DNA of 64,000 nt, taken from assembly GCA_964474085.1 (NCBI GenBank), contig CAYYRJ010000002.1, positions 70,110 to 134,109 of the forward strand, given 5' to 3'. A model generated the notes under the pieces. It searched no databases, was not told where the DNA came from, and was given only the letters and a program-made list of their open reading frames with translations. Numbering within the stretch: the first letter of the stretch is position 1; each line of letters opens with the position of its first letter. Both the position numbers and the translations under genes were made by a program. Origin of the DNA: an uncultured Planctomycetales bacterium (GTDB taxonomy: Bacteria; Omnitrophota; Gorgyraeia; Zapsychrales; JANLHA01). Below, piece by piece: positions 19,426 to 43,296 of the stretch.

Positions 19426-19451
19426 AACCGCAATCCGATCATTTCACAAAT

Positions 19452-20294
19452 ATGCCCAGCGGAAAATACTTTAAATATCTTCCCGCGACTCTGCCGTGGA
19501 TACTCTTAGGCGTTCTTTACGCTCCGGTCTTCTACATTCTTTATAAAGAACGCTGGGAAATGATCGATTACGGCCATGCGCCTTTTATTTTGCCGATTGC
19601 CATTTTTATCGTCTGGCTTAAACGAAAATCATTACTGAGTGTCGCAAAAAATTCCCAATCCACATTTTATTTTCCCGGTTTTATTCTGATTCTCGCCGGC
19701 GCTTTTCTATTTGCGTTTGGCTGGCGCTGGGACTATCTTTTGATCCAAGTGCTTTCCATTTTTCCACTTTTGCTGGGAATGTTACTCTTTTTTTACGGGT
19801 CCCAAATGATACGGCAGCTCATTTTTCCGATTCTCTATCTTTTTCTTTTGGTCCCCCCTCCTCTAGGAATTTTAGACAGCATCACTTTGCCAATGCGGCA
19901 TTTAGCGTCCGCATCCGCAGGATTTATCCTTAAAACATTTCATTATCCCGTATCAAGATCCGGACTGCTTTTGTATTTGGGAGATCACGAAATATTTTTA
20001 GGCGCCCCTTGCAGCGGATTTCGGTCGCTGATTACCATGTTTTCGCTGGGACTGATTTATGTTTACTTTAACAAGGGAAAATTTTCCAAAAACCTGATCC
20101 TCGTGCTCTGCATTGTACCTTTAGCCTTATTCGGAAACATGCTCCGCGTCGTTGCGATCTGCCTGTTAACGTTTTATTTTGGTGAAAAAGTCGGCCAGGG
20201 ATTTTTGCATGAATTTAGCGGAGTTGTCGTCTTTTTGATCATGTTGGCCGGACTTATGGGGCTGGAACGACTTTTAAGAGAACCCAAAAAATGA
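19452..20294 (+). CDS. exosortase (EpsH/XrtA-like)
   Basis: Polytopic membrane protein of about 280 aa directly after the PEP-CTERM gene and before EpsI. The start is moved to the ATG at 19452 because the track ORF overlaps the upstream gene. Confidence 0.75.
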   Translation: MPSGKYFKYLPATLPWILLGVLYAPVFYILYKERWEMIDYGHAPFILPIAIFIVWLKRKSLLSVAKNSQSTFYFPGFILILAGAFLFAFGWRWDYLLIQVLSIFPLLLGMLLFFYGSQMIRQLIFPILYLFLLVPPPLGILDSITLPMRHLASASAGFILKTFHYPVSRSGLLLYLGDHEIFLGAPCSGFRSLITMFSLGLIYVYFNKGKFSKNLILVLCIVPLALFGNMLRVVAICLLTFYFGEKVGQGFLHEFSGVVVFLIMLAGLMGLERLLREPKK

Positions 20295-20941
20295 AAAACC
20301 TGAAATTTTATATCACATCATTGATTCTGGTCATAACAATCTTGATTTCTTTTGCACTCCCACGGCAAAAATATCAGGGAACATCTATTTTGCAGAATAT
20401 TAATATACCTCTGACCCTTAGTGACCAATGGCAAAGCGTTGACTATTCGATGAATTTGTCGACGACAAAAGATGACCGGTTTAATTTTTTAAGCGGCGCC
20501 TTTGCCCGTATTTACGGCACACGTGAAGGCCGCAGTCTTTTGCTTTTGATTTTGGACGCAGGGAATTTTCATCATCCACAGCTCTGTTATGGAAGTTCAG
20601 GTTTTAAAATCAAGGAATTAGACGAAACGCTCCTGCAAACGCAAAACAAAACGCTAAAGGTCAAAACGTTCGTAGCACAAAAAAATGCGCAAAATGGCGA
20701 GGCAATTGTCGTCATGTTTTGGATGGTCATCAATAAAGAAAAAGTCGATTGGACTGAACAAAAACTTACGCAATTATGGCATTCATTATTTAACAAAAAG
20801 CAAGTTGGCCTGATGACCCGTCTGGATATCCCGGCTTCGGACGGTCAAATTGACCAAGCGATCGAGTACGGGCAAAGATTCATTCGCGACTTAGGCGGCG
20901 CAATGCCGACTGAAAAGCAAGAATGGATATTTGGCAAATAA
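20291..20941 (+). CDS. exosortase-associated EpsI-family protein
   Basis: 216 aa with one N-terminal TM helix. There is an ATGA overlap with the exosortase gene. Size and placement match EpsI. Confidence 0.65.
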   Translation: MKNLKFYITSLILVITILISFALPRQKYQGTSILQNINIPLTLSDQWQSVDYSMNLSTTKDDRFNFLSGAFARIYGTREGRSLLLLILDAGNFHHPQLCYGSSGFKIKELDETLLQTQNKTLKVKTFVAQKNAQNGEAIVVMFWMVINKEKVDWTEQKLTQLWHSLFNKKQVGLMTRLDIPASDGQIDQAIEYGQRFIRDLGGAMPTEKQEWIFGK

Positions 20942-21055
20942 CGCAAAATCTTTCTGTTTGACATTTTCCCTACCTTAACTTATTATCCAATCATCCCCAG
21001 CTATTACCCCAATGGCTATTTAAAAATATTGTTTAACCTTCCGATCGAGGTGCCA

Positions 21056-24000
21056 ATGTCTAAATTTTTTAGTTTTACAACAAAATTCTTCCTGACACTT
21101 TTTTTTGTTTGCACGCTCACCCTTTTTTCTCCCCAACTACAAGCAACTGCCGTTCTTCCGGCGCCGACACTTAAAAGCGCAATTGGCGGGATTGGAAAAG
21201 TTACCCTCGCCTGGGACAAAGTCCCTGACGCGACAAGCTACACTATCAAATACGGCACGACATCCAACATGATTGATTCGACGGTTACCGGGGATGTCAA
21301 TACGTTTGCTGTCAGCGGCTTGGCTAACAGCACGATATATTATTTTGTAGTAGTGGCCAAGAATGCGACCAGCACAAGCGCCTACTCGCGCCAGATGAGT
21401 GCTAGAACGCAACTTCCGCCGCCTTTTTTAAGCGGTGCCAGCGGGGGAATTGGAAAAGTTGTCCTGACTTGGGAAAAGGTTCCCGGCGCAACAAGCTATA
21501 TCGTTAAATACGGCACGACATCGCTAAATTATCCAACCGTCCTTAGCGTCGCGGATGTCAATACATTTACGGTCACCGGCTTGGCCAATGATACGAGCTA
21601 TTATTTTGTTGTTGCCGCAAAGAATTCTTTAAGTACAAGCATTAACTCGCGGCAGATGACCGGCAAAACGTGGGGACCGACAGCTGCATTACCCAAACCG
21701 ACGGTAAACTTTTCGGCTAATCCGACGGCAATCAAAAGCGGCGAATCGACCAAGCTCACATGGACGTCAACGAATGCGACTTCTCTATATATTGATAATG
21801 CCATAGGTGCCGCTTCGGATCACGGGACGCTTAGTGTTTTCCCTAAAGTCACAACGACCTATACAATTACCGCAACCGGCGCTTTAGGTTCTGCCAATGC
21901 CAAAGTAACGGTTTATGTGACGGCAACGCCAACGGCACAACCGCAGGGGACCTTTGGCTCACAGTACAAAGACATCATCCCTCAAGATGCGACGGTCAAA
22001 GAATACGCGGTCAAACGCTTTGCTATTATTCGCGGAGAAGTCAAAGACAAAAATAATCTGCCGCTCTCCCAAGTTAGCGTTTTTATCGACGGACACCCTG
22101 AGTATGGGACGACCAAGACCGACACAAGCGGCCAATTTTCTTTACCCGTTGACTTAAACGGGACACTTAATATCAGTTTTGAAAAACAAGGCTTTATTCC
22201 AAGCCACCGGCAAATTTATGTCGCGCCCAACGATGTAGCGATTGTCGAAACGCTCACCTTGCTTAGCGAAGACACCAAAGCCACCGAAGTTGCCCTCAAC
22301 GGCGATGCAAAAAATATCGTTGTCCATCAAAGCACGCCGGTGAGTGATGTTTCCGGCACACGCAGCGCGAATGTCGTTATTACCGGCGACAATAAGGCGT
22401 ACGCTGTTGATGAACACGGCAAAGACATGTTTGAGCTGTCAAAATTAAATGTGCGCGCCACCGAGTTTGCAACACCTGCGTCTATGCCGGCCGCCCTGCC
22501 GCCGACGTCCGCCTTTACGTATTGCGTGGAGCTTAAAGCAGACGGTGTTGATCGGGTCAGGTTTAAAGATCCGGTTGTCGTGTATGTCGACAATTTCTTA
22601 GGGTTTAATGTCGGCGAAATTGTGCCTGTCGGTTATTACGACCGCGACCGAGGGGTGTGGGTGGCTTCTGAGAATGGACGGGTTGTCAAGCTTTTGGATA
22701 CAAATGGGGACACAAAAGTTGATGCCTTAGACAGTACCGGCGACGGTGTCGCGGATGACCTTAACAAAAATGGAGATTATTCGGATGAAGTCAAAGGCCT
22801 AAATGATCCGGCCAAGTATACGCCCGGCAAAACTTTTTGGCGGGTGAGCCTGACACATTTTACTCCGTGGGATTTTAATTGGCCGTTTTGGCCTGAAAAA
22901 AGCGCAATTGGACCCAATGCAAAAGGGAAACCCAATGCAGATCAACAAAAAAATGAAGGTGATGATTGTGACAAGGCAACAAATTCTTTTGTCAATTGCC
23001 GCAGTCGTATTTATCACGAAGACATTGATATCCCGGGCACAGATTTAACATTGCATTATGCCAGCAACCGTGTGCCGGCTTACAAGACCGTGATCACAGT
23101 TCCAGCTAGCGGGGACACGGTTCCCTCTTCGCTTCAAAAAATCGTCGTGAGATTAGATATCGCCGGCCGGACATTTGAACAGACATTGCCGACTTTAGCT
23201 AATCAAACAGCAGAATTTCGTTGGGACGGCCTAGATTATTTCGGTCATAGAGTGGACTCTACCACTGCACATATCACGACAGAATTTGTATATAAAGCAT
23301 TCTATGTGGGGTTTGGAGCAACAGGCGAGCGGGCCCCTGCATTCGGCGAGCCCGGAGTTACGACAACAACCGTTCGCGCTCGGGAAGAATTTATATTTTC
23401 CACAGAACGAAGTATTTTAGTACACAATCAAGCGGAAACACGCGAAAGGTTAGCGCAAGGCTGGACATTATCCAATCACCATTTTATGAGTGCGAGGGAT
23501 GTAAGTACTCTTTATAAAGGAAATGGCGATGTTGTGAGCAATGATGGCTTAAACATAATTACAACTATTGCGGGAACAGGTGAGGCAGGATATAGCGGAG
23601 ATGGCGGTCCGGCAACTGAGGCGAAGTTATATTCTCCCGTTGATGTAGCGGTTGATCAGAGTGGGAATATTTATATTGCGGATTACGTTAATCACCGTAT
23701 TCGCAAAATTGATTTAAACGGTATCATCACGACGATTGCTGGAACAGGTGTGGAAGGATACAGCGGAGATGGTGGCCCGGCAACCGCAGCGGGTATGTAC
23801 CCTTCAGGTTTGGCGGTTGATCTTAACGGGAATGTTTACATTACAGATAATCAGCGAATTCGAAAAATTGATACAAACGGGATAATAACAACTATCGCGG
23901 GGACAGGCGTTTATGGATTCAGCGGAGATGGCGGCCCGGCAACTTTAGCTACATTCAAGAGTCCGACCGGGATAACAGTGGATGCGATTGGGAATATCTA

Positions 24001-27000
24001 TATATCGGATACGAGAAATCAACGTGTTCGCAAAATCAATACCGACGGAATTATTTCAACCATAGCTACGACTCCTAGCAAATATAATAAATCTTATCCG
24101 ACGATGATTACGAGTGATCAAAAAGGCAATATTTATTTTACAGTTTATGGATCTACTGTTTTGGGTATCCCTGTGTACTGTGAAATCTATAAAATTGATA
24201 TAAATGGGGTCAATACTTTAGTAGCTGGGGATTATGTGTCTGGATTTAGTGGCGATGGAGGCCCAGCTAAAAGTGCGCTGCTGCAAAACCCTAACGGAAT
24301 TGCAGTTGATAAGTTTGGTAATATTTATTTCGCCGATACTGGGAATTTACGAACTCGCAAAATTGACATCGATGGCATTATTACGACAGTCGCGGGAACA
24401 GGTGAGCGTGGATACAGCGGAGATGGCGGCTCGGCCACTGCGGCGAAGATAAATCGTCCCTATGGTGTTGCGGTTGATCAGGGCGGAAATATTTATATTG
24501 CGGATTCGGGTAACAACCGTATTCGTAAAATTACTTTGGCAACAGCCTTTGCTCCCGCCGACCCGGGCGATATGACCTTTGCCGAAGAAGGCTTTGGCTA
24601 TACGTTTTCACTCGACGGCAAGCACAAACAAACCGTTGACCTTGATACAAAAAAAATCCTTGAACAATTTGGTTATGATCCGTCAGGGCGGTTGATTTCA
24701 TCAACGGATTCTTTTGATAATAAAGTCACGATTGAGCGTAATGCCTCTGGTGTGCCGACGGCAATCGTCTCCCCCGATGGCGTGCGGACAAACCTGACCA
24801 TCGATGCCAAAAACCATTTAACACAAATCACCTATCCCGACGGTAAATCCTACAATTTTGAGTACACGCCCGGCGGCCTTTTGACCAAGGAAACGGAGCC
24901 TAAGGGAAACTTTTTTACGCACACCTTTGACGCAAACGGTCGGATTACCGATGTCCTCGACCAAGAAGGCGGGCACGAAAAGTTTGGCCGAAAGGTTGAT
25001 GTCAATACCGGGGACGTCACAACAACTGTGACCAGTGGAGAAGGCGATGTTGTGACGTACGTGGACCAAACAGCATCGACCGGCGCTTTGACTTCGACAA
25101 GCTCGGTGTCCGGTGTGACAAAGCCGACAACCTTTTCGCGCAGCAGCGATGAGCTGACTTCCAAAATCACCTCTCCGGACTTGACTGTCAGTGACCTAAG
25201 CTTTGATCTTGACCCGGAGTATAAATTTAAATATCTTAAGTCACAAACCATCACAACACCCTCGGGACTCAAAGCGCAGGCCACTTTTGCCCGCACCTAC
25301 ATCGACACTAATAGCGACGGCAAAAAAGATCTCATCACCCGCAGCGCGTCGTTAAACAGTAAGTCAACGACACTCACCCATGATGTTTTGACGTCGACTT
25401 TTAAAGCAACGTCCCCGCTTGGCCGGAGTATGACAACCGTTTATGACCCCACGACACTGTTGACCTCTAAGGTGAGCGTCCCTGAGCTGTTTGATACAAC
25501 CTATACGTATGATTTAAAAGGGCGTGTCAAAACTGTGCAGACCTCGACACGGACAATGTCTTTGGACTACGATCTTAATGGCAATGTCGAGTCGATAACA
25601 GATCCGCGAGGCAATCGTACTAGTTACACTTACGATGCCGTCGGCCGGACAACAAAAGTTCATCGGCCCGACTCAACTGAGGTTCATTTTGAGTACGATG
25701 CTAATGGCAATATGACGGTGCTGACTAATCCGTCGAGCCAGAACCACGGTTATATTTACAATGCCGTCAATCTGCCGACGAGTTATGCCCCGCCGATCTC
25801 TCCGGCAACGCAGTATGTTTACGACAAAGAGCGGCGTCTTAAAGAAATCGACTTTCCGTCAGGCAAAAAGATCAAAAATGTTTATACCGGTGTGCTCTTA
25901 ACTCAGACCCAAACGCCTGAGGGAAATGTCGATTATACCTATCTGCCTTCGGGACAATTGGCCAAAGTCACAAAGGGTTCCGAGTCTCTTAACCTTTCGT
26001 ATGACGGCAGTCTTTTAAAGACTGTAACTTCTGCCGGGACACTCGGTCAGACGCTTTCATTAACCTATAACACGGACTTTAAAGTCACCGGTTTGACGTA
26101 TGCCGGGGCGATAAACAGTTTTGGGTACGATAATGACGGACTTTTGACCTCATCGGGTAGATTTACGATTGGCCGCAATGCCCAAAACGGTTTACCGACG
26201 GCTGTTGCTGGTGGAGTTTTAAATTTAACCCGGACGTTTAACGGTTTTGCAGAGCTGTCGACCCAAACGCAAACTGTTAACGGTTCTGCGGCTGCCCTTT
26301 TTGGCTTGACTTACAATCCAAATGGTCAAATCGCAACCAAGAGCGAAACCGTCGCTGGGGTCACATCGAACTACGCCTACACCTACGACGCATTGGGACG
26401 TCTGACAAAGGTCGAAAAAGACGGCGTTCTCGTCGAAGAGTACGGCTACGCCGGCGCTGATCCACTGGGCACGCGCACTTATGAAATGAACACCTTGCGC
26501 GGGATTGCCGGACGCTCTTTGACATACAATGCCGAAGATCAGCTTCTTAGTGTCGGGAGTGCGACGTATCAATATGATACGGACGGATTTTTGTCCAAAA
26601 AGACTGACGGCGCTGCTATAACAACGTACAATTATTCTTCCGCCGGCGAATTATTAAGCGCCTCTTTGCCCGACGGACGGACACTCGAGTATGTCTATGA
26701 CCCGCAAGGTCGACGGATAGCCAAAAAAATTAACGGCGTACTCGTCGAAAAGTATCTCTGGGCGGGATTGACACAGCTCTTGGCTGTCTACGACGGGGCT
26801 GATAGTCTTGTGATGCGTTTCGAATACTCTGATGCGCGCGTACCCAACGCAATGGTCAAGAGTGGCACGACGTATTATTTAAGCTATGACCAAGTCGGGT
26901 CATTGCGTGCCGTGTATGATGCGACAGGTGCTCTGGTTAAACGCATCGATTATGATTCGTTTGGAAATATCCTCGTCGACACAAATCCGGCGTTCTCTCT

Positions 27001-27652
27001 TCCCTTTGGTTTTGCCGGAGGGTTAGATGATCGCGACACCAATTTAGTCCACTTTGGATTCCGCGACTACGATCCCTTAACCGGCCGCTGGACGGCGAAA
27101 GATCCGATTGGGTTCGGCGGGGGTGATGTCGATCTATACGGTTATGTCGAAAGCGATCCGATCAATTTTGTTGATCCTTATGGATTGTATTGGTTAAAAG
27201 ATTGGTCTGATTTCTTTGGAGGATTTGGCGATTTTATTACTTTTGGTGGAACTGGATGGTTGCGAGACCAGTGGGGGTATGGCGGTTTCGTTGATCCATG
27301 CTCGGGTTGGTATACCGGCGGAGAAATTGCTGGATTTGGGGCATCTGTCGCTTTGGGCGCTGCTTGGGGTTTAGAAGCGGCAGGAACGAAAGGAGCGGGT
27401 AAAGAGTTCTCTCATTGGATTCCAAAAAGACTTGGGGGTCCAAATTCACTATTGAATGGGAACTATGTCTCGAAGAGTACCCATGCGTTATCTGATCCAT
27501 ATCGGTATAGGTTTATGTCTAAGGCTTGGAAAGCAAGTAACCCAATTTATAACCCACTACAAAGACAATGGATTCGGTTGCCTAATTGGATTAAAGGTGC
27601 AGGTGCTGGTGCTGGATATGGGACTGGATCTAATGCAATAAGGGAGAAGTGA
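21056..27652 (+). CDS. giant secreted teneurin-like YD-repeat / RHS polymorphic toxin (2,198 aa from ATG): signal peptide, 2 FN3-like, Ig-like, transthyretin/CarbopepD_reg-like, Ca-binding Asp-rich, NHL repeats, YD repeats, RHS core, variable C-terminal toxin
   Basis: FN3-like repeats (GKVTLAWDKVPDATSYTIKYGTTS, twice). CarbopepD_reg-like segment (IRGEVKDKNNLPLSQVSVFIDG...TDTSGQFSL). Six or more NHL repeats (e.g. YSPVDVAVDQSGNIYIADYVNHRIRKID). Many YD repeats (YTYDAVGRTT, YEYDANGNMT...). RHS core ends ...DPxGL at 27188, followed by a Gly-rich unique tail. The ATG at 21056 with GAGGTG upstream is preferred over the track TTG at 21029. Confidence 0.9.
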   Translation: MSKFFSFTTKFFLTLFFVCTLTLFSPQLQATAVLPAPTLKSAIGGIGKVTLAWDKVPDATSYTIKYGTTSNMIDSTVTGDVNTFAVSGLANSTIYYFVVVAKNATSTSAYSRQMSARTQLPPPFLSGASGGIGKVVLTWEKVPGATSYIVKYGTTSLNYPTVLSVADVNTFTVTGLANDTSYYFVVAAKNSLSTSINSRQMTGKTWGPTAALPKPTVNFSANPTAIKSGESTKLTWTSTNATSLYIDNAIGAASDHGTLSVFPKVTTTYTITATGALGSANAKVTVYVTATPTAQPQGTFGSQYKDIIPQDATVKEYAVKRFAIIRGEVKDKNNLPLSQVSVFIDGHPEYGTTKTDTSGQFSLPVDLNGTLNISFEKQGFIPSHRQIYVAPNDVAIVETLTLLSEDTKATEVALNGDAKNIVVHQSTPVSDVSGTRSANVVITGDNKAYAVDEHGKDMFELSKLNVRATEFATPASMPAALPPTSAFTYCVELKADGVDRVRFKDPVVVYVDNFLGFNVGEIVPVGYYDRDRGVWVASENGRVVKLLDTNGDTKVDALDSTGDGVADDLNKNGDYSDEVKGLNDPAKYTPGKTFWRVSLTHFTPWDFNWPFWPEKSAIGPNAKGKPNADQQKNEGDDCDKATNSFVNCRSRIYHEDIDIPGTDLTLHYASNRVPAYKTVITVPASGDTVPSSLQKIVVRLDIAGRTFEQTLPTLANQTAEFRWDGLDYFGHRVDSTTAHITTEFVYKAFYVGFGATGERAPAFGEPGVTTTTVRAREEFIFSTERSILVHNQAETRERLAQGWTLSNHHFMSARDVSTLYKGNGDVVSNDGLNIITTIAGTGEAGYSGDGGPATEAKLYSPVDVAVDQSGNIYIADYVNHRIRKIDLNGIITTIAGTGVEGYSGDGGPATAAGMYPSGLAVDLNGNVYITDNQRIRKIDTNGIITTIAGTGVYGFSGDGGPATLATFKSPTGITVDAIGNIYISDTRNQRVRKINTDGIISTIATTPSKYNKSYPTMITSDQKGNIYFTVYGSTVLGIPVYCEIYKIDINGVNTLVAGDYVSGFSGDGGPAKSALLQNPNGIAVDKFGNIYFADTGNLRTRKIDIDGIITTVAGTGERGYSGDGGSATAAKINRPYGVAVDQGGNIYIADSGNNRIRKITLATAFAPADPGDMTFAEEGFGYTFSLDGKHKQTVDLDTKKILEQFGYDPSGRLISSTDSFDNKVTIERNASGVPTAIVSPDGVRTNLTIDAKNHLTQITYPDGKSYNFEYTPGGLLTKETEPKGNFFTHTFDANGRITDVLDQEGGHEKFGRKVDVNTGDVTTTVTSGEGDVVTYVDQTASTGALTSTSSVSGVTKPTTFSRSSDELTSKITSPDLTVSDLSFDLDPEYKFKYLKSQTITTPSGLKAQATFARTYIDTNSDGKKDLITRSASLNSKSTTLTHDVLTSTFKATSPLGRSMTTVYDPTTLLTSKVSVPELFDTTYTYDLKGRVKTVQTSTRTMSLDYDLNGNVESITDPRGNRTSYTYDAVGRTTKVHRPDSTEVHFEYDANGNMTVLTNPSSQNHGYIYNAVNLPTSYAPPISPATQYVYDKERRLKEIDFPSGKKIKNVYTGVLLTQTQTPEGNVDYTYLPSGQLAKVTKGSESLNLSYDGSLLKTVTSAGTLGQTLSLTYNTDFKVTGLTYAGAINSFGYDNDGLLTSSGRFTIGRNAQNGLPTAVAGGVLNLTRTFNGFAELSTQTQTVNGSAAALFGLTYNPNGQIATKSETVAGVTSNYAYTYDALGRLTKVEKDGVLVEEYGYAGADPLGTRTYEMNTLRGIAGRSLTYNAEDQLLSVGSATYQYDTDGFLSKKTDGAAITTYNYSSAGELLSASLPDGRTLEYVYDPQGRRIAKKINGVLVEKYLWAGLTQLLAVYDGADSLVMRFEYSDARVPNAMVKSGTTYYLSYDQVGSLRAVYDATGALVKRIDYDSFGNILVDTNPAFSLPFGFAGGLDDRDTNLVHFGFRDYDPLTGRWTAKDPIGFGGGDVDLYGYVESDPINFVDPYGLYWLKDWSDFFGGFGDFITFGGTGWLRDQWGYGGFVDPCSGWYTGGEIAGFGASVALGAAWGLEAAGTKGAGKEFSHWIPKRLGGPNSLLNGNYVSKSTHALSDPYRYRFMSKAWKASNPIYNPLQRQWIRLPNWIKGAGAGAGYGTGSNAIREK

Positions 27653-27655
27653 GAG

Positions 27656-28474
27656 ATGTTAGGTAAAATACTATCTTCAATTATTCCAAAGTTTAAACCT
27701 CTTGAAGAGGCGCTAATTAAAGAATTATTGGATAATGTTTTAATTACAGACACAAAAGCAAAGTTAAAATCTCAAATAGAAGGAATTAATCATGTGCAAA
27801 GACTTTCTGATGGAAAGGAAGTTGATTTGTATTGTATGAGAGGCGGGAAACCATATCGCGATGATAGTCAGAGAGTAGTTGCCCCAACGGTTGAATTTAA
27901 ATTTGCTAGTATCTCTTTTAAGCCGAGTAATACAAATGAAAAATTAAAAGTAGATTTTTGGTTAGTAGAAGGGATGTTGTTTTCATTAACTTTTAGTAAA
28001 TCACCTAAACCTTATTTAAGTAATGCAGTTATTTTTGTAGAGGAAGTTAAGTTTTATAATCGAGATAATAATATAAGGATGGGGGATGTTAATTTTTTAG
28101 GAATACTAAAGGAGTGGAGTAATAAGTATAATGTTCGGGGTATTAAACCTCCCCTGACGGAATCTTCTATAAAAAGTTTTGTTTTTAATCAAGCGATTAA
28201 TTTTCCCGCAGGTTATTTAGATTTAATAGGAAAAACTGATGGTTGTGATGTTAATGCTTGGCATGTTTTAGGATTAATGGAAATAAGACAAATAGTTTTA
28301 GAGGACAAAAACTATTGGATTATTGCGGAGGCCGATAATATTGGAGTTTTGGCCATTATTGATAGCAAACAAAGCGATAATATTTATTTTCTAGATTTTG
28401 ATGGTTCGGAGCCGCAAGATATGGGGAGAAATTTTGAGGATGTGATGGAAGAAATAATTAAGAAGAATAAGTAG
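27656..28474 (+). CDS. putative cognate immunity protein for toxin 1 (hypothetical, AT-rich)
   Basis: Starts 4 nt after the toxin stop. Composition shifts to AT-rich. No recognisable domain. Confidence 0.5.
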   Translation: MLGKILSSIIPKFKPLEEALIKELLDNVLITDTKAKLKSQIEGINHVQRLSDGKEVDLYCMRGGKPYRDDSQRVVAPTVEFKFASISFKPSNTNEKLKVDFWLVEGMLFSLTFSKSPKPYLSNAVIFVEEVKFYNRDNNIRMGDVNFLGILKEWSNKYNVRGIKPPLTESSIKSFVFNQAINFPAGYLDLIGKTDGCDVNAWHVLGLMEIRQIVLEDKNYWIIAEADNIGVLAIIDSKQSDNIYFLDFDGSEPQDMGRNFEDVMEEIIKKNK

Positions 28475-28592
28475 AGGGAAATATGTGCGTAAAGGGGTCA
28501 CCGAATTAAATTAAAGTTTTAAGTTCTTTGATATTCTTTATTTTCCATCGACGGAGATTGCCGCGTCGCTTCGCTCTTCCTAAGGACGGCGT

Positions 28593-29678
28593 TTGCGCGG
28601 GATTGCCGGACGCTCTTTGACATACAATGCCGAAGATCAGCTTCTTAGTGTCGGGACTGCGACGTATCAATATGACACGGACGGATTTTTGTCCAAAAAG
28701 ACCGACGGCGCTGCTATAACAACGTACAATTATTCTTCGGCCGGCGAATTATTAAGCGCCTCTTTGCCCGACGGACGGACACTCGAGTATATCTATGACC
28801 CGCAAGGTCGACGGATAACCAAAAAGGTTAACAGCCTTGTCGTCGAAAAGTATCTCTGGGCAGGATTGACACAGCTCTTGGCTGTCTACGACGGAGCTGA
28901 TAGTCTTGTGATGCGTTTCGAATACTCGGATGCGCGTGTTCCCAACGCAATGGTCAAGAGTGGCACGACGTATTATTTAAGCTATGACCAAGTCGGGTCG
29001 CTTCGTGCCGTGTATGATGCAACAGGTGCGCTGGTCAAACGCATCGATTATGATTCGTTTGGGAATATCTTAGTCGACACAAATCCGGCGTTCTCTCTTC
29101 CGTTTGGTTTTGCCGGAGGGTTGGATGATCGCGACACCAATTTAGTTCACTTTGGATTCCGCGACTACGATCCCGCAATCGGTCGCTGGACGGCGAAAGA
29201 TCCGATTGGCTTTAACGGCGGGGATGTGGACCTTTACGGTTATGTCCTCAACGATCCGGTGAATTTGGTGGATCCGACGGGTTTGATTATCCCAGGAGAT
29301 CCCGATCCATCGGATGAAATTTTAATTTTCTTAGCTTTGCAAAAGTTTATTGCACAGAATGGGCCTAGGATATCGCAATATTTAGGACAACAAGGAGAGC
29401 GAATAGCAAATATTGCAAAAAATTCTCAAAAAATTCTTATTGAAGGTCGCAATCGGATACCAGATGTTTTAAATAAAACGGAAAAAATAATTGGGGAAGT
29501 AAAAAATGTATGTAGATTGCCTAATACTAAGCAATTGCAGGATTTCTTAACTTATGCCGAGGAAAAAGGATATGATTTTTATTTAAAGGTAAGAGAGAAT
29601 ACTCAATTATCAGCGCCACTTCAAAAGTTAGTGGATGAAGGTAGAATAATTTTAGAAAGAATACTTCCTAAACAGTAA
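28593..29678 (+). CDS. orphan RHS C-terminal cassette (RHS core remnant plus alternative toxin tip with a PD-(D/E)xK nuclease-like motif). It lacks an ATG start.
   Basis: The first ~230 aa are nearly identical to residues ~1820-2050 of toxin 1 (RGIAGRSLTYNAEDQLLSVG...DPIGF). It diverges after DPTGL (29286). The tail has RIPDVLNKTEKIIGEVKNV (PD...E-x-K). The frame opens at a TAA at 28581 with only a TTG at 28593. Confidence 0.75.
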   Translation: MRGIAGRSLTYNAEDQLLSVGTATYQYDTDGFLSKKTDGAAITTYNYSSAGELLSASLPDGRTLEYIYDPQGRRITKKVNSLVVEKYLWAGLTQLLAVYDGADSLVMRFEYSDARVPNAMVKSGTTYYLSYDQVGSLRAVYDATGALVKRIDYDSFGNILVDTNPAFSLPFGFAGGLDDRDTNLVHFGFRDYDPAIGRWTAKDPIGFNGGDVDLYGYVLNDPVNLVDPTGLIIPGDPDPSDEILIFLALQKFIAQNGPRISQYLGQQGERIANIAKNSQKILIEGRNRIPDVLNKTEKIIGEVKNVCRLPNTKQLQDFLTYAEEKGYDFYLKVRENTQLSAPLQKLVDEGRIILERILPKQ

Positions 29679-29724
29679 GATGAGCTATTTTAATATGACA
29701 AACCTCGAGGAGCGGAGTGCATAA

Positions 29725-30480
29725 ATGCAAGAGAACAATAAAAAGGAAGCTCCTCTCAGCAGGAAAGAAATCATGCAGTTTGTGCATTTTCAGCACTATA
29801 TTCTCCCAAGAGAAGAAAAAGATCCGATAAGAAAAGCACGTATTGAAAAGCACAAAAGCGATGCAGCTCCAGTTATTAAAGATTTGAAAGAACTAGGGTT
29901 TACAATTTATGATTCAATGTCGGATATCTTTAGATATAAGTTTAATCATAAAATATATAAAAGAGCAATCCCAGTATTAATAAAATGGTTGTCTAAAATT
30001 GAAAACCTAGAGGTAAAAGATGAAATTATATCTTGTCTGCGTGATAAAAACGGTAGGGACCCTGCGATAGTCCCAATTTTAATTAAAGAATTTTATTTAG
30101 CTGATGAGCTCGCTGCAAAAAATCAATATTGCCATGATTATAAGGCAAATTTAGGTGATGCAATAGGCAATTCGATGAATGACGACTATTTTGATCAGAT
30201 CATTTCAATTGTTCAAAATAAGAAACATGGGGATGCTCGTATAATGTTAGTTTTGGGATTAGCTAAATTGAAAAATCCCAAAGTAGTTGATATATTAATC
30301 GATCTGCTCAAAGATGAGGATGTTCAAGGTCATGCGGTTACAGTATTACGAAAATTAAAGGCTAAAAAAGCAGCGCCTTATGTTGAGCCTTTATTGAATC
30401 ACCCTATCACTTGGATTCGCAACGAAGCAAAGAAATATTTTCTAATTATAGGTAATTCCGGTGACACCTATAAGGAATAA
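29725..30480 (+). CDS. putative immunity protein for orphan cassette 2 (alpha-helical, HEAT/ARM-like repeats)
   Basis: 251 aa, AT-rich, with repeated helical hairpin pattern (..LIDLLKDEDVQGHAVTVLRKLKAKKAAPYVEPLLNHP..). Located directly after the orphan toxin. Confidence 0.45.
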   Translation: MQENNKKEAPLSRKEIMQFVHFQHYILPREEKDPIRKARIEKHKSDAAPVIKDLKELGFTIYDSMSDIFRYKFNHKIYKRAIPVLIKWLSKIENLEVKDEIISCLRDKNGRDPAIVPILIKEFYLADELAAKNQYCHDYKANLGDAIGNSMNDDYFDQIISIVQNKKHGDARIMLVLGLAKLKNPKVVDILIDLLKDEDVQGHAVTVLRKLKAKKAAPYVEPLLNHPITWIRNEAKKYFLIIGNSGDTYKE

Positions 30481-30587
30481 TTCCGGGGACACAAGACTTA
30501 ATTGTTAGTTTGATTTATACAGTTCTTTGACATTTTCTTTGTTAGCTTGACGCAGATTGCTTCGTCGCTCATGCGGAGCTCCTCGCA

Positions 30588-30875
30588 ATGACAGCGTTGC
30601 GCGGGATTGCCGGACGCTCTTTGACATACAATGCCGAAGATCAGCTTCTTAGTGTCGGGAGTGCGACGTATCAATATGATACGGACGGATTTTTGTCCAA
30701 AAAGACTGACGGCGCTTTAGTCACAACGTACAATTATTCTTCCGCCGGCGAATTATTAAGCGCCTCTTTGCCCGACGGACGGACACTCGAGTATGTGTAT
30801 GACCCGCAAGGTCGACGGATAGCCAAAAAAATGGATAAGTCGGACCGTTTCTCATTAACGCATTGTGGCTGTTGA
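30588..30875 (+). pseudogene. third orphan RHS fragment, truncated after about 85 aa by the IS200-like insertion
   Basis: MTALRGIAGRSLTYNAEDQLLSVGSATYQYDTDGFLSKK...YDPQGRRIAKK matches toxin 1. It then diverges into ...MDKSDRFSLTHCGC-stop, where the conserved element-end sequence begins (30840). Confidence 0.7.
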
Positions 30876-31480
30876 GTTTGCGGCAGAAGTGTCCCCCGTC
30901 ACTAAATTACCCCAACTAAATCTTTATGGAGGTAATTTATGGGACGTATAAAACGAATACATTATGGATCAGCTTGTTATCATGTTTGTGCGCGAGGCAA
31001 TAACCGTCGATACATTTTGGAAAAGAGCGAGGCCAAAGATTATTTTTTGGGAGTAGTTGAGCGATATCAAAAACGGATGAAATTTAAAATTTATGCATTT
31101 GTTATTATATTATGGGAAACCATTTTCATTTATTGCTAGAGGTTGACGAACGTTTTGGGATTTCGAAAGTTATGCAAGGGATATTGCTGTCATTTAGTAT
31201 TTGGTATCGACGACGTGAAAAATATGTTGGGCATGTTTGGCAAGGCAGGTTTACAAGTCGATTGGTGGAAAACGAAATTCAATTAGCTGAAAATATTCGA
31301 TATATTCATGCCAACCCGGTTCGGGCGGGAATGGTTAAAGAGGAGATTGATTACAAATGGAGTTCAGCGCTGTGTTGGGGGGACTATAAAGGAGCAGATA
31401 ATAAAATTTTGGGTTTGGAGATTACGCGCGGGGACATTTCTGACGGAAACATAATAATTGCAACGTGTTGAGAAGAAACG
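30840..31480 (+). mobile_element. IS200/IS605-family (Y1 HuH / RAYT-like) insertion carrying a frameshifted transposase
   Basis: Bounded on the left by TCGGACCGTTTCTCAT...GCAGAAGTGTCCCCC, which is also found at 43198-43260. The transposase has HuH (NHFHLLLEV) and catalytic-Tyr region (RYIHANPVRAG) motifs. Confidence 0.6.
30939..31471 (+). pseudogene. IS200-like Y1 transposase split by a +1/-1 frameshift near 31112-31139
   Basis: ORF 30939-31139 (MGRIKRIHYGSACYHVCARGNNRRYIL...KIYAFVI) and ORF 31112-31471 (MGNHFHLLLEV...YIHANPVRAG) join to give the canonical ...YAFVIMGNHFHLL... HuH neighbourhood. The shift lies at the ttatattatggg run. Confidence 0.65.
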
Positions 31481-31493
31481 GTCCCTACTACCT

Positions 31494-31787
31494 ATGACTA
31501 TTTTACGAGAATTTCAAAAGTGGTATCACAGTTATTGTGATGGTGTATGGGAACATCAGCATGGAATAAGAATTGGCACGATTGACAATCCTGGGTGGAG
31601 TATAGAAATTAATTTAATTGGCACTAAAAATGAAAATGTTGAGCTTGAAAGAATTGAAATTGAAAGAAACGATAATGACTGGATTCATGCTTGGGTTGAA
31701 AATAAAGTTTTTAATGCCGCATGCGGGTCATTAAACTTGGAAGAAGTTTTAGAAATATTTTTGAAATGGGCACCAAGCAAAAAATAA
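31494..31787 (+). CDS. small hypothetical protein (possible orphan immunity protein)
   Basis: About 97 aa from the internal Met (MTILREFQKWYHSYCDGVWEHQHG...). AT-rich and located within the toxin/immunity cassette array. Confidence 0.35.
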   Translation: MTILREFQKWYHSYCDGVWEHQHGIRIGTIDNPGWSIEINLIGTKNENVELERIEIERNDNDWIHAWVENKVFNAACGSLNLEEVLEIFLKWAPSKK

Positions 31788-31890
31788 GCAGAACTAAGCC
31801 GGAGGCGTCTAAATAAAAATATATAAAAATAGTATAAAAATAGAGTAAAAATAGGGACAGTGGACTTCCCCCCTACAGAAACTCATACAC

Positions 31891-33660
31891 ATGACAAAAC
31901 TATCTAAAAATATTACAATCCAAATTCTTTTCCATTTAAGCTTTTTTACTATTGGAGGAGCGATTGCATCCGCCGAGATGTTTAAACTCAAATCAGGAAT
32001 TATGTTTGAAGGCAAAGTTATTGAACGTACAAAGGAATATCTAAAAATCGATCGAGGCCTTGGTGTTAATGCGACCTATTATTTAGATGAAATTGAATCT
32101 GAAGGGCCCTCCTCCGAAAGCTCAGTTGTTAGTTCAAGTTTAAATAACCCTCAACGAAAACGTTTGTCCCCTGATGAATACTTTGGATTACGTCAATTAT
32201 TCGAAAACCGTCAGTTTGAGGAACTTGACAAATCCTTTAATTCGTTTCAAAAAGAGTTTGAAGCCGATCACCTCAAGGAAGACAAAATTTCTGACGCGTT
32301 AAGCATATTTTCATCAACACAAGAGACCGATAAAATCTTATTTGATGAGTGGCAAAAACAATTTCCAAACAGCTTTGCGCCGTATCTGGCACGAGCAAAG
32401 TATTACAGGAATCTTGGCTGGGAAGCCCGAGGTGGCAGATGGGCCACAGAAACAACAAATGCGCAATTTGAAATGATGCATTCTTATTTTGAAGTAGCTC
32501 TGCGCGAATGCAAAAAAGCCTTAGAAATAAATCCGCAATTATTACCTGCTTATCGAACGATAATCGATGTGTACAATGTAGAGAGCAATGACAAAATTGA
32601 AGATGTCATAAACGATGCTTTAAAAATTTCACCAGAATCATACCTTATTCGCTCTTTAATCATGATTGGATTTACTCCTCGATGGGGTGGGAGCTATGAA
32701 AAAATGGAAGAATTTGCAAAAGATTCTGATCAATATCTAGATAAAAATCCCTATTTGAAAGTTCTTCGGGGATTTATATACGAGGATCAAGGTGATATTT
32801 TAGAAAATAGACACGAATCTAACAATAAACGGATTAATACAGTTTTTAAAAATGCCTTCCCCCTACTGACTCCAATGATTGATACTCTTGAAAAAGCTGC
32901 CGAAACTCACCATGAATATACGGATGAAGAAAAAATGAAAGTTAGACAAGCAATCGAATTATATAGCCGTGCTATATCTTTCGGGGAGAATGCAGGTTTT
33001 TATAAAGATCGTGCTGATGCTTACATGATTTTAGAAGATACCCCAGCCGCTTTAAAAGATTTAAAACGAGCTATCGAATTAAGCCCACTAAACTCGGATT
33101 TTTATGAAAGTTGTGCACGAATTTATTATGATAACGGTGATTATAAGTCTGCTCTTAAATTTGCTAATCTGGCAGATCGTTTAGGATTTAGCCCGGAGAG
33201 ATTAGTGTCTTGGAAAAAATGGGCGTCAGAATATCTTGTTGTTTTAGGTTATCAAGCTTATCAAGCTAATAATTATCCTGGAGCTATTGAAAAGTTAACG
33301 GATGCTTTAAAATTTAACCCGTCCAACGAACAAAGTTATTATTGGCGAGGCCGTGTAAAATTGATGCAAAACAATTATGACCTTGCTTTAGAAGATTTTA
33401 AACAAGCTACTAAAATTAATCCCCAATATTTTGAGCCTTATCAAAACATTGGATATATTTATGCAAAACAAAGAAGATTGCAGGAAAGCTTGGAGTATCT
33501 AAACAAGGCTCTTGAGATTAAGCCCAATGATGCAAGGACTTTATACGATCGCGCTCATGCGTACCATCTTTTGGGTGAGGATAAAAAAGCGGATATCGAC
33601 ATAAAAAAATCTTGTGATCTTGGCGAAAAAGAAGCTTGTCGAATCAGCGCATCTAAGTAG
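31891..33660 (+). CDS. secreted TPR-repeat protein
   Basis: Signal peptide (MTKLSKNITIQILFHLSFFTIGGAIASA). Multiple TPR-like units in the C-terminal half (AYQANNYPGAIEKLTDALKFNPSNEQSYYWRGRV..., ...YQNIGYIYAKQRRLQESLEYLNKALEIKPNDARTLYDRAHAY...). Confidence 0.6.
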   Translation: MTKLSKNITIQILFHLSFFTIGGAIASAEMFKLKSGIMFEGKVIERTKEYLKIDRGLGVNATYYLDEIESEGPSSESSVVSSSLNNPQRKRLSPDEYFGLRQLFENRQFEELDKSFNSFQKEFEADHLKEDKISDALSIFSSTQETDKILFDEWQKQFPNSFAPYLARAKYYRNLGWEARGGRWATETTNAQFEMMHSYFEVALRECKKALEINPQLLPAYRTIIDVYNVESNDKIEDVINDALKISPESYLIRSLIMIGFTPRWGGSYEKMEEFAKDSDQYLDKNPYLKVLRGFIYEDQGDILENRHESNNKRINTVFKNAFPLLTPMIDTLEKAAETHHEYTDEEKMKVRQAIELYSRAISFGENAGFYKDRADAYMILEDTPAALKDLKRAIELSPLNSDFYESCARIYYDNGDYKSALKFANLADRLGFSPERLVSWKKWASEYLVVLGYQAYQANNYPGAIEKLTDALKFNPSNEQSYYWRGRVKLMQNNYDLALEDFKQATKINPQYFEPYQNIGYIYAKQRRLQESLEYLNKALEIKPNDARTLYDRAHAYHLLGEDKKADIDIKKSCDLGEKEACRISASK

Positions 33661-33864
33661 TTATTATACCCACCCTATAGAAGTAGAGTAATCGGGACCG
33701 TGGTAGACTCTAAATTAACTGAACCGTCTTTTCATAAGAATTGGCTCCTTTTGTTTGAGCTCAATTCTACACAATTTGGTCAATTTTGTTAACTGGGGTC
33801 AGTATACAGCTATTACCCCAATGGCTATTTAAAAATATTGTTTAACCTTCCGCTCGAGGTGCCA

Positions 33865-36800
33865 ATGTCTAGATTTTTTAGTTTTACAACAAAATTCTTC
33901 CTGACAACATTTTTTGTTTCTGCTGTTGTGTGTTTTTCGTCAAAACTCGAAGCCGTTGTCCCTGCATTGTCATCACCGACTTTATCGACCGTCACCGCTG
34001 GCGACGCGCAGGTTATCCTTAAGTGGACCTCTGTTACAGATGCGACCAATTATATCGTCCGCTATGGGACGGCTTCAGGTGTTTTTACAAAAGCCGTTAA
34101 TGCCGGCAATGTCACGACCTTTACGGTCAGCGGATTAGCGAATGGGACGGCGTATTATTTTGTTGTCGCCGCAAGCAATGCCTCCGGTAAAAGTGCCAAC
34201 TCTTCTCAAAAAAGCGCCCGACCACAAATTTCGGCGCCGGTTTTAAATTCAGCGATGGGCGGCGTTGGTCAGGTTGTTTTAAATTGGAACAGTGTCCCGA
34301 CGGCAACGAATTATTCGGTCAAATACGGGACCGCCTGGGGAAAATACACAAAAGTTGTGGACGTCGGCGATGTCACGACATTTACTTTGAGTGGTTTATC
34401 CAATGGCACAATGTACTTTTTTGTTGTTTCGGCAAACAATGCCGCTAGCAGCAGTTCAAACTCGGCCCAAAAAATTGCGACACCCCGACTGCCCACCCCC
34501 ACTCTTGTCAGCGTAACCCCTGGGAATATGAAAGCGACTTTGACATGGAGCGGTGTTGTTGGTGCCGAAAGTTATCTGGTCAAATGGAAAACTCCGTCAG
34601 ACCAGTATGCAAAAGCGATGAATATCGGGAATGTGAATTCCTATACGATCAAAGGGTTAAGCAATGGGACGACGTATTATTTTACGGTTGCCGCCGCCGT
34701 TGGAACATTAAGCGTCAGTCTCGATGCGCCGGGCATCAATGCGACACCGAGAATATCTACAGCGACCGCACCTGCGGCGCCGACTTTAAATTCTCCGACG
34801 GTTGGTAATGCCCAAGTGACATTAAACTGGAATGTCCCCAACAATAATGGTTCACCGATTACAGGGTACGATATTCAATACGGGACTCTAGAGAGCGGTT
34901 TGTTTAACAATATCTGGAATGATGACAATGTCCCCGGCGCTGTCATTGGAGGATTGACGAATGGGACCAATTATCAGTTTAGGGTCATTGCCCGCAATGC
35001 GATGGGTAGCAGTTTACCTTCTTCTGCTGTTAGCGCTCAACCTTTGATCTTAGGAACGCCAGCCCAAATGCAATATCCCTCTTTCGGCGCAACAATTTAT
35101 CTTCCTAGCGTCAATTTTTCATGGAACGCTGGTATCGGAGCCGATGCCTACAAAGTTATCGTCGGAACAAGCGTTGGAGCAAATAATTTGGCAGACAGCG
35201 GCGAACTAACCGATTTAAATTACACTGTTTTTAATGTTCCTCTTACCGGCGTCCCCATTTATGTGCGCCTCTCAAGTTTGATTAACGGACTATGGGTTTC
35301 ACAAGAATATCAATATTTAACTTCCGCCAATCGCGTCATTAAGTTTCAAGGGTCAGGTTCAGGCGTCAAAGAATATTATGACCCTTCGGGCTGGTGGCAA
35401 AAGGTGACGTTTAATCTCACCACGGATTTTGATGTTGTTGCACAAAATCCGCGGCTTAACGCCGACGGGATTCATGTCGACCATGATTTGGTGCGAAAAA
35501 CAGGGACACTTCATTTTTGGGGAACCGCCCAGGATTACTTTAACGGCGCATTAAACGAATTCAGTTTTGACCGTTCGCAAAACATCGATATCCAAACCTT
35601 GCAAGGGATTTTTTCATACTCTAAAACACGAATGGATGACGTTTATATTTCGTTTGACGTCTCCCCTTCCTCAACCCTGCCTTATGTCGTAAATCTCCAA
35701 TATGCGGCATTTATCCCGATTGTCCGAGCCAGCATGGTTATGCCTTACCCATGGAATTTAGGATACATCGACAATGCCACGTACGATATTCCTGCAACCG
35801 ACGATTTTCAAAGGCCCTGCGATATTTCAATCGATCTACAAAAGGGTGATCTCGTACCCGGAGACACGGTATCCGTCTATGCTTCAACCTTGGTCAACCC
35901 TTCAGATTCTTTACAATGGCAAATCCTGCCTGGCAAAGACAGCGACGCGCGCGCGAATATCAGCCCATCGGGCGCTAACGCCCAAATGGCGACCATCAGT
36001 GATATCCGAGGAAAAGGAGAACTGGTTTTAAAAATTTCAAACCCCTCGATTGCCGGCTGTCAAAAAGAAATTCCCTTAAATGTCGGTTGCGGCTGTGCCA
36101 GCAGTGAAAACATGTGCACCTTAGACGGGAAATATAATTTGTCGAGCATAGACGTTACCCTCGATCTAGGCCGGACTAAACGAGGAAAATCCGCTGGAAG
36201 CCTTCAGTTAAAGACGGACAAAATTTCGGCCGATAATTCGACGCCTAAAAAACTTAAAGTTTTTGCCGTTGAGAGCACAACAGAAACGCTCTACAGCAGC
36301 AACAATATTTTACGGCAAGTTGTAACGCCGGAAATTTTTGTAGATATTACCCCTGTCGATGCCTACCGCTACGACATCAAATACTATGCTCTAACCGACA
36401 AAGGTACTAAGGTCGGCGGCTTTTATCAAATCGGCGGCGCGGCCATACCTCTAAAAACTTGGCGAATCGAAAACCCTGACCTTTCCTCGACGATTTATAA
36501 TCGTTTAAAAATCACCGAAACCCAAAATGCAATTGTCAAAACGTATGAATACATTTGGAACCAAAACTTAGGCCAATGGCAGCTTAAAACCGGCGATGGT
36601 CTACAAAATGAAAACCTCGTTGAACAAACCATCAACGGCAATCGTGTTGTGACGCGGACATTGAGTGATAGCGCCGGAGTCGTTGCGTCCAAAACCCAGA
36701 CGACATTTAAAGACATTGCCGGGCCCGATGGGATTTCGCAAAATATTATTAAAACAATCGAAGACCCTGCCGGGATCGCCTTAACGACGAACAGCACGTG

Positions 36801-42079: not shown

Positions 42080-42255
42080 TAAAAGCCTCCGTTCTGGAGG
42101 ATTTAGATTGTAAATCCCCCAAACCTGCCTTTGGCAGGCAAGCCCCCTTTCTTGCAGACTGGGCCAGATGAAGTGGCAATCTGAAAAGTGGATTCCCGCT
42201 TTCGCGGGAATGACAAAAAAGACAATGTCATCCCTGCGAAAGCAGGGATCCAAGG
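42080..42255 (+). repeat. hairpin-dense repeat, copy A (about 176 bp)
   Basis: About 98% identical to the core of copy B. Contains cctccgttctggagg, ggaggatttagattgtaaatccccc, cctgcctttggcagg, attcccgctttcgcgggaat and tccctgcgaaagcaggga stem-loops, including GAAA/TTTC tetraloops. Confidence 0.85.
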
Positions 42256-43185: not shown

Positions 43186-43296
43186 TTCGAGATTAATTCG
43201 GACCGTTTTTACATAACCTGTTGATTTTAGCTTAAAGTCCAGCAGAAGTGTCCCCGAAATCGTTTTTAGTTCTTTGAAAAAGTAAAAAGTATTTTC

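Follow-up and report, generated by a model that had tools for sequence, protein, structure and literature searches.

The window analysed here, a stretch of 64,000 nucleotides (nt) from contig CAYYRJ010000002.1 of an uncultured bacterium, carries a large RHS gene (toxin 1) and, directly behind it, partial copies of that gene's core together with several small genes, which are the subject of this report (positions 28475-31787). The main gene is teneurin-like in its profile matches, with fn3, a TTR-like domain, an NHL propeller, a YD shell and RHS repeats, the last two through matches to RHS_repeat (five stretches), TEN_YD-shell and YD_repeat_2x. The end of its core is recognised by the TIGR03696 Rhs_assc_core model with 71 bits, compared with 78 bits for the first of the partial copies, orphan 1 (cut-off 32.5), and both cores close on a PxxxxDPxGL junction (SDPINFVDPYGL in the main gene, NDPVNLVDPTGL in orphan 1) with a variable tip after it. 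The main gene and the features immediately behind it, from the list of open reading frames (ORFs) and the searches, are as follows.

21029-27652, + strand: main toxin-1 RHS gene, 2207 codons in the ORF list
26495-27177, + strand: reference core copy, the final 683 nt of the toxin-1 RHS core, with matches to TIGR03696, YD repeat, TEN_YD-shell and RHS_repeat
27173-27187, + strand: DPYGL of the main gene junction
27178-27652, + strand: tip A, the toxin domain now fused to the main gene
27656-28474, + strand: imm1, putative tip A immunity gene, 272 aa, 31.5% GC, assigned by position only
28593-29275, + strand: core fragment of orphan 1 (228 codons), with 92.7% identity to 26495-27177
29271-29285, + strand: DPTGL of the orphan 1 junction
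29276-29678, + strand: remainder of the junction and tip B, with a Tox-REase-7 PD-ExK nuclease domain at 29385-29621
29725-30480, + strand: Imm-HEAT type putative immunity gene for tip B, 251 aa, HEAT_2 with 47 bits (cut-off 27.7)

The repeat finder returned a family of direct repeats with three copies, which it anchored at 26495, 28593 and 30597, and blastn aligned 26495-27177 with 28593-29275 at 92.7% over 683 nt without gaps (633/683) and 26485-26730 with 30587-30832 at 96.8% (226/232 in the ungapped part). By both methods, the two extra core copies that an earlier note on this DNA had placed at 28593 and 30588 lie essentially where it put them; its description of them as near-identical in nucleotide sequence suits the third copy (96.8%) and slightly overstates the second (92.7%). 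The copies differ from the main gene at 50 positions (orphan 1) and 6-8 positions (orphan 2), and the longest runs of perfect identity to it are 64 nt and 116 nt, respectively. At the codon level, 30 synonymous and 17 non-synonymous differences separate the orphan 1 core from the main gene. Homology to the main gene starts at 26495 for orphan 1 and at 26485 for orphan 2, with an unrelated leader 5' of it, as in headless orphans, and one YD repeat unit is kept in each of the two.

Orphan 1 is an uninterrupted ORF of 361 codons that runs from the Rhs core domain through DPTGL into tip B. The PD-(D/E)xK-like motif that the earlier note had seen past DPTGL proved in a profile search to belong to Tox-REase-7 (PF15649; E 1.8e-18, 67 bits, cut-off 25, model positions 1-84 of 84), with all four motifs of the family found in tip B (GQQGE for GxxxE, IPD for IxD, EVK for ExK, and the Q in KQLQ), while a search of PDB sequences with tip B gave nothing significant. 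The helical-repeat putative immunity gene proposed to follow it was likewise recovered, as the HEAT_2 match at 29725-30480. Tox-REase-7 domains are paired with Imm-HEAT proteins, occur in RHS fusions and are found in planctomycetes and verrucomicrobia (Zhang et al. 2012, PMC3482391). Relatives of tip B numbered two in a word-indexed search of 5.8 billion proteins, both short, and one relative, 49% identical, lies in an unrelated contig (L089) with a homologue of the HEAT protein next to it (35%, E 6e-17), a co-inheritance of toxin and HEAT neighbour that supports a cognate pair. The prediction that tip B and the HEAT protein form a Tox-REase-7/Imm-HEAT toxin/immunity pair is thus supported. 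With the described pair (PMC3482391) it shares the family, the four motifs, the RHS fusion, the HEAT neighbour and the occurrence in the Planctomycetes-Verrucomicrobia-Chlamydiae (PVC) group, whereas the tip in the window is highly divergent and has two detectable relatives in the word-indexed search.

Tip A has no match in Pfam, NCBIfam or PDB sequences and imm1 has no Pfam or NCBIfam family match, and tip A and its presumed immunity protein may constitute an undescribed toxin/immunity family. ORFs in the immunity position follow both tip A (27656-28474) and tip B (29725-30480), and neutralisation of the tips by their products is predicted. The cassettes are AT-rich, with a GC content of 32.6% in tip B, 33.5% in the HEAT gene, 31.5% in imm1 and 33% in the Imm53 gene described below, compared with 49% in the core and 42.7% in the window, a disparity that fits horizontally acquired tips, as in the classical composition contrast of rhs genes.

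Behind the HEAT gene, the third core copy is cut short by a mobile unit, on the far side of which an immunity gene stands without a toxin.

30587-30833, + strand: orphan 2 remnant, which keeps 82 codons from the start of the core segment (96.8% identity to the main gene); ATG at 30588
30834-31490, + strand: unit of a REP-associated tyrosine transposase (RAYT) gene with arms of the repetitive extragenic palindromic (REP) type, 657 nt, its ends taken from matches of contigs L086, L087 and L088
30842-30896: left arm, 55 nt, inverted repeat I1
30939-31471, + strand: Y1 transposase pseudogene (Y1_Tnp), in ORFs 30939-31139 and 31112-31471
31430-31484: right arm, 55 nt, inverted, inverted repeat I1
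31494-31787, + strand: Imm53 orphan immunity gene, intact, 3 nt past the RAYT unit
43200-43256, + strand: solo third arm copy in the toxin-2 array, 15 nt past the stop codon of ORF 42526-43185 (nhmmer E 6e-17)

Orphan 2 leaves the main sequence after ...CCAAAAAAAT at 30833, and the nucleotide matches of L086, L087 and L088 to the window begin at 30833/30834 and end at 31490. With the ends of the unit mapped by these other contigs, its left end equals the end of the RHS homology to the base. The truncation by a mobile element described earlier therefore holds, with the break after 82 codons, at 30833/30834, in place of about 85. The Imm53 gene (PF15580; 107 bits, cut-off 25, model positions 2-91 of 92) has neither a Shine-Dalgarno sequence of its own nor a cognate toxin, and between the orphan 2 stub and Imm53 there is no trace of the remaining core or of any toxin tip. 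Because the core remainder and the tip are gone while Imm53 is intact 3 nt past the element, a deletion is needed besides the insertion; judged from these boundaries, either an insertion accompanied by a deletion or a rearrangement involving two elements took place, and a simple insertion is insufficient. The known partners of Imm53 are Ntox24 and Ntox10 (Zhang et al. 2012, PMC3482391), and given this pairing the lost tip of orphan 2 was plausibly one of these.

The transposase of the unit is split by a 5-nt tandem duplication of ATTAT (31104-31113; GTT ATTAT ATTAT GGG), present in two independent contigs. With one ATTAT removed the reading becomes ...KIYAFVIMGNHFHLLL... and the product a protein of 175 aa; intact homologues of exactly 175 aa, 87% identical, have ...YAFVIMGNHFHLLL... 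at the frameshift point (...YAFVIMGNHFH...). The frame-corrected protein contains NHFHLL and RYIHANP motifs (HUH and the catalytic Tyr) and passes the REP_Tyr_transpos model NF047646, a RAYT equivalog model, with 88.6 bits (cut-off 80), but reaches only 21 bits with the IS200 model NF033573 (cut-off 55). The arms have the consensus GGGACCGTTTCT, about 30 nt, CAGAAGTGTCCCC; the same arm-gene-arm layout, with inverted flanking repeats, occurs in the metagenome contigs L086, L087 and L088, and further arm copies were found in L087 (seven) and L088 (one) besides the solo copy in the window. The termini of the arms are partly complementary, and as folded single strands the arms show no gain in stability over shuffled sequence (z = 0.52, 0.08, -0.06). 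There is no second full copy of the unit in the window, and clusters of homologues occur on 1-3 contigs each. A 138-nt direct repeat (42081-42218 and 43297-43434; 99%), composed of GGAATGACA-type REP-like units, brackets ORF 42526-43185 and the solo arm.

The label 'IS200-like' given to the unit in the earlier note is apt at the level of the Y1_Tnp superfamily; as IS200 proper it fails, both by the models and because it is bounded by a pair of inverted repeats and not by distinct left and right hairpins. With the IS200/IS605 elements the unit shares the Y1_Tnp superfamily, small size and the disruption of a gene; those elements have distinct subterminal hairpins and several identical copies, in contrast to the inverted 55-nt ends and one copy in 64 kb seen here. 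Closer are the REP-RAYT systems, reportedly set out by Nunvar in 2010 and by Bertels and Rainey in 2011. In common with these systems (summarised in bioRxiv 10.1101/2024.07.17.603846) are a Y1 HUH protein of the RAYT model, two inverted flanking repeats and solo repeat copies elsewhere. Unlike them, the window arms are 55 nt long without unusually stable hairpins, the unit sits inside a gene fragment and not at a conserved extragenic site, and the RAYT gene is frameshifted; the element resembles classical REPs in architecture, not in structure.

The sequences that precede the two orphans resemble each other and contain short repeats.

28475-28592, + strand: leader 1, with a degenerate GGGGTCAC (~28492), GTTCTTTGATATT at 28523-28535 and a REP-like unit AGATTGCCGCGTCGCT from 28555
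30479-30492, with a near-copy at 30454-30467: 14-mer AATTCCGGGGACAC, straddling the stop codon of the HEAT gene
30481-30586, + strand: leader 2, with GTTCTTTGACATT at 30522-30534 and a REP-like unit GATTGCTTCGTCGCTCATGCGGAGCTCCTCGCAATGACA from 30555

About 76 nt of leader are common to both orphans (28517-28592 and 30514-30587; ~76% identity) and absent from the main gene. It contains a 13-nt motif, GTTCTTTGAYATT, of which all three occurrences in 1.1 Mb of related sequence lie 5' of orphans (two in the window, one in the Omnitrophota locus L004, at 11573-11585), against a chance expectation of about 0.07 in the 1.1 Mb; the RHS cores of the window and L004 are about 76% identical. A REP-like unit of the GATTGC...GCAATGA type follows GTTCTTTGAYATT and is dispersed in L004. 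For the role of GTTCTTTGAYATT, an extended -10 element and a cassette junction are guesses. A scan for promoters and terminators in 27400-32000 gave no more matches than shuffled sequence would and none in either leader, single-strand folding of the leaders was no better than that of shuffled sequence, and an Rfam scan of 27500-33900 gave no match at E<=1. The sequence AGTTCTTTGA is also present after the solo arm, at 43268.

Two patterns at the orphan starts were considered and set aside. A 10-mer, TCTTTGACAT, common to leader 2 and to the core just inside the orphan start is probably a chance match, and a universal orphan start at ...TYEMNxLRG... does not hold across the comparison set of 78 related loci, in which 61 orphan fragments start at core residues of about 420-800 with a mild cluster at 590-608. 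That cluster (of an 832-residue query) surrounds the conserved ...TYEMNxLRGIAGRSL..., where the window orphans also begin, and the conserved Met codon is the first ATG of the orphan ORF in L004 and in window orphan 2. For the 28593 copy, the earlier statement that the frame opens at a TAA and has no ATG is right as far as the TAA at 28581-28583 and the 5' end are concerned, but a TTG at 28593 lies 6 nt past a Shine-Dalgarno-like AAGGA (28582-28586). The ATG of orphan 2 (30588) lies 10 nt past GGAG.

Comparison with the related loci bears on how such modules come and go. The closest relative, L003, is a metagenome-assembled genome (MAG) labelled Planctomycetales, and the next relatives belong to Candidatus Omnitrophota. 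The gene is shared by L003, with a nucleotide identity of 94%, up to window position 27177, where homology ends and a different, unrelated tip follows, so that three unrelated tips stand behind the same junction (main gene, orphan 1 and L003). Within the L003 core, blocks alternate between the alleles of the window main gene and those of orphan 1 (55 informative of 60 differing sites) in 17 runs (permutation p = 0.0013), among them one of 12 main-type sites and two of orphan type (9 and 8 sites), a block mosaic indicating that sequence in the orphan position was exchanged with working genes in this lineage. RecA-dependent exchange usually requires roughly 25-30 nt of identity, and the 64- and 116-nt runs of perfect identity are therefore an adequate recombination substrate. 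Exchange of displaced tips into the main gene by homologous recombination, as the earlier note had proposed, is thus indirectly supported by the identity runs, by the different tip of L003 at 27177 and by its mosaic. Several core fragments spaced 1-4 kb apart are found in 32 of the 78 related loci, including complete genomes.

In L004 (11750-19860), two orphans with identical ends each have the same 542-aa DDE transposase behind them and, further on, truncated tips (one DUF2380-like, the other Ntox8 with a DUF2750 neighbour); orphan arrays are thus damaged repeatedly by insertion sequences.

Taken together, the region very probably forms the variable 3' part of a polymorphic toxin locus of the rhs type, with an array of orphan C-terminus/immunity modules, and the core domain, junction, tip and immunity families bear out the earlier note, which had read it in this way. 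The anatomy, the domain identities, the junctions, the tip polymorphism in a close relative and the mosaic cores are observed directly; toxicity, the specificity of immunity, the expression state of the orphans and present-day switching in this organism are inferred. The main gene carries tip A and is followed by the putative immunity gene of that tip, with displaced or acquired orphan modules behind it, of which module 1 comprises the 228-codon core piece, the Tox-REase-7 DNase tip and the Imm-HEAT gene. In module 2, the landing of the RAYT unit and a deletion would have removed the core remainder and the toxin and left Imm53. On the model of Salmonella rhs, these immunity genes may protect against relatives that deploy those tips. 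The 683 nt of 93% homology could allow a RecA-dependent fusion of tip B to the delivery gene, safest after a duplication of the locus, and new tips would arrive by horizontal transfer and recombination in the conserved core.

Arrays formed by displacement of rhs C-termini in Enterobacteria were reportedly described by Jackson and colleagues in 2009. In Salmonella Typhimurium (PMC3967940, PMC7043789) the rhs-main/orphan locus has the same order as the window, namely a full-length rhs gene, an immunity gene, a headless core fragment, a new tip and an immunity gene, with a shared 3' core of 522 bp at 95% in Salmonella and of 683 bp at 92.7% here; there, duplication plus recombination activates the orphan (Koskiniemi et al. 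2014, PMC3967940). The window differs in having two orphan modules, one of them destroyed by a mobile unit, and a solitary immunity gene, in orphans preceded by a conserved non-coding leader, and in a delivery gene that is teneurin-like (TTR/NHL/YD) with no context of a type VI secretion system (T6SS) seen; its host is uncultured and Omnitrophota-like, and recombinational activation is here an inference. These displacement arrays and the arrays of orphan cdiA-CT/cdiI modules (Poole et al. 2011, PMC3150448) have in common with the window tandem tip/immunity cassettes, a retained conserved piece, AT-rich tips and frequent insertion sequences. Unlike in displacement and cdiA arrays, the two window orphans start at one and the same core position behind a common leader, a pattern closer to cassette duplication or replacement than to plain serial displacement, and they belong to RHS and not CdiA.

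Several observations weigh against this interpretation or limit it. The common leader and the same core start of both orphans are not predicted by simple serial C-terminal displacement. Tip B was never seen on a full-length RHS protein (in the index of 5.8 billion proteins; a metagenome scan gave partial, weak matches), neither a recombinant with tip B nor evidence for an alternative arrangement from reads or long reads was found, and no T6SS, PAAR or VgrG genes were seen in the annotated parts of the window. The low ratio of non-synonymous to synonymous change (dN/dS) in the orphan core may date from its time in a working gene and is accordingly no demonstration of selection on the orphan. 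Finally, the sole contig that enters the orphan 1 core, L082 (equal to window 27441-28963, from ENA), is a mosaic of single-nucleotide polymorphisms (SNPs), in which leader 1 is followed by orphan-2-type SNPs, orphan-1-type SNPs and then variants that all three copies lack; it represents either a chimera made by the assembler (coverage about 4x) or a variant strain or recombinant.

That mosaic, the low coverage of the short-read contigs (about 3-4x) and their breaks at repeats would also be expected if the repeats were an artefact of collapsed or duplicated contigs or of mixed strains, an explanation that is hardly credible. The copies differ at 50/683 and 6/232 positions and are each flanked by unique sequence on either side, relatives (complete genomes among them) often have the same architecture, and the unique junctions are all present at 100% in contigs of other assemblies from two sequencing runs (ENA ERZ4216102; Logan SRR12487046 and SRR12487035). 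These contigs match window positions 27082-28622, 29247-30549, 29281-30626, 30740-33612, 30965-33758 and 31211-32705; all unique junctions lie inside these contigs, whose breaks fall within the repeats, as is usual for short-read assemblies, so that the interiors at ~28622-29247 and ~30626-30740 fall outside their linkage, and look-ups of the exact proteins (imm1, HEAT and Imm53) returned contigs of 1.3-2.9 kb from the same study, which confirm junctions and not long-range order. The possibility, raised by the earlier note against itself, that the repeated segments are assembly artefacts is largely refuted by the differences between copies and the independently assembled junctions. A more serious alternative, compatible with recombination yet still doubtful, is that the orphans are internally expressed toxin-antitoxin modules, making short cytoplasmic proteins of core and toxin that are held in check by immunity. 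Orphan 1 is uninterrupted over its 361 codons, a conserved leader precedes orphans in two genomes, and both the TTG at 28593 and the ATG at 30588 have Shine-Dalgarno-like sequences, comparable to those of about 1/3 of the confident window genes checked; such start signals are short, however, and could arise by chance, and the promoter scan showed no excess over shuffled sequence and no match in the leaders. A precedent exists in Salmonella, where the tips of rhs main and orphan are expressed internally in a toxin-antitoxin-like manner (Starsta et al. 2020, PMC7043789), but the internal starts there lie 89 nt 5' of PxxxxDPxGL compared with about 680 nt here (PMC7043789). With Shine-Dalgarno-like starts at the orphan edges and internal expression in Salmonella, the term 'silent', which the earlier note applied to the displaced tips, is unproven.

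Slightly less likely is a graveyard of displaced modules without present function, persisting because it is recent and with orphan 1 not yet hit by any disabling mutation, as could be read from the orphan 2 stub, the frameshifted RAYT gene, the loss of the toxin and upstream region of Imm53, and the L004 array likewise broken by two identical DDE transposase copies. All three immunity ORFs and the whole of orphan 1 are nevertheless intact with every Tox-REase-7 motif kept, the deletion ended 3 nt before the start codon of Imm53, and the L003 mosaic includes orphan-type alleles, meaning that such sequences re-enter working genes. The idea that GGGGACAC-type sites and RAYT-family Y1 HUH enzymes mark or help to move toxin-immunity cassettes in RHS arrays across phyla, a REP/RAYT-driven shuffling analogous to a single-strand integron, is very improbable. 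It draws on REP-like motifs after the HEAT gene (30479), after ORF 42526-43185 (43200) and flanking the RAYT gene, and on the 14-mer AATTCCGGGGACAC, which is identical to inverted repeats of RAYT genes downstream of RHS in two Desulfobacterales MAGs, L041 (11271, 12001, 17593 and 18323) and L049 (11895), and has the core CGGGGACA(C/T)TTCTG in common with the window arms. RAYT-type genes gave 13 matches in 9 of the 78 loci (L009, L012, L013, L020, L026, L041, L043, L045 and L049), all downstream of the RHS core (in 349 kb) and none in 234 kb of upstream flank, with 12 of the 13 co-oriented with RHS and, for 7 of the 9 loci, a match within 1.4 kb of the core; the window RAYT has its closest homologue (in L087) 3.8 kb behind a 2496-aa RHS-repeat protein, and GGGG[AT]CA occurs within 200 nt upstream of 6 of the 61 orphans, with a background of 2.4%. 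Most orphans, on the other hand, lack that motif, the arms fold no better than shuffled sequence, the window RAYT gene is a pseudogene, any dispensable, often-transferred region gathers mobile DNA, and no paper tying RAYTs to polymorphic toxins was found in the literature searched. Three other homologues lie among housekeeping or unrelated genes, one of them with synteny conserved across samples, and the notion of a RAYT lineage specific to RHS loci was downgraded on account of these three. If cassette-marking were true, it would account for the common orphan leader and same 5' boundary, the identical 14-mer at Desulfobacterales RAYTs and the downstream-only placement of RAYTs, and the proximity of RAYT/REP sequences to RHS cassette boundaries, a weak statistical hint, is the only thread here with wider potential.

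The rhs array with orphan modules, as preferred here, is a textbook one in an unusual host and leaves the understanding of rhs loci unchanged. It extends the classical main-plus-orphan architecture, with evidence of turnover, to a teneurin-like RHS toxin of an Omnitrophota-like bacterium, from a lineage in which contact-dependent antagonism is essentially unstudied, and it delimits a Tox-REase-7/Imm-HEAT pair of divergent sequence and a RAYT unit with arms and exact boundaries.

Around the array, an EpsH exosortase gene and EpsI-family genes (19290-20941) directly precede the toxin-1 gene, the 5' region of which (20998-21110) equals 33807-33919 at 96% over 113 nt, the latter belonging to a second RHS gene (33838). 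A gene for an AbiEii-type nucleotidyltransferase toxin (43653-44456, - strand) lies just past the toxin-2 array.

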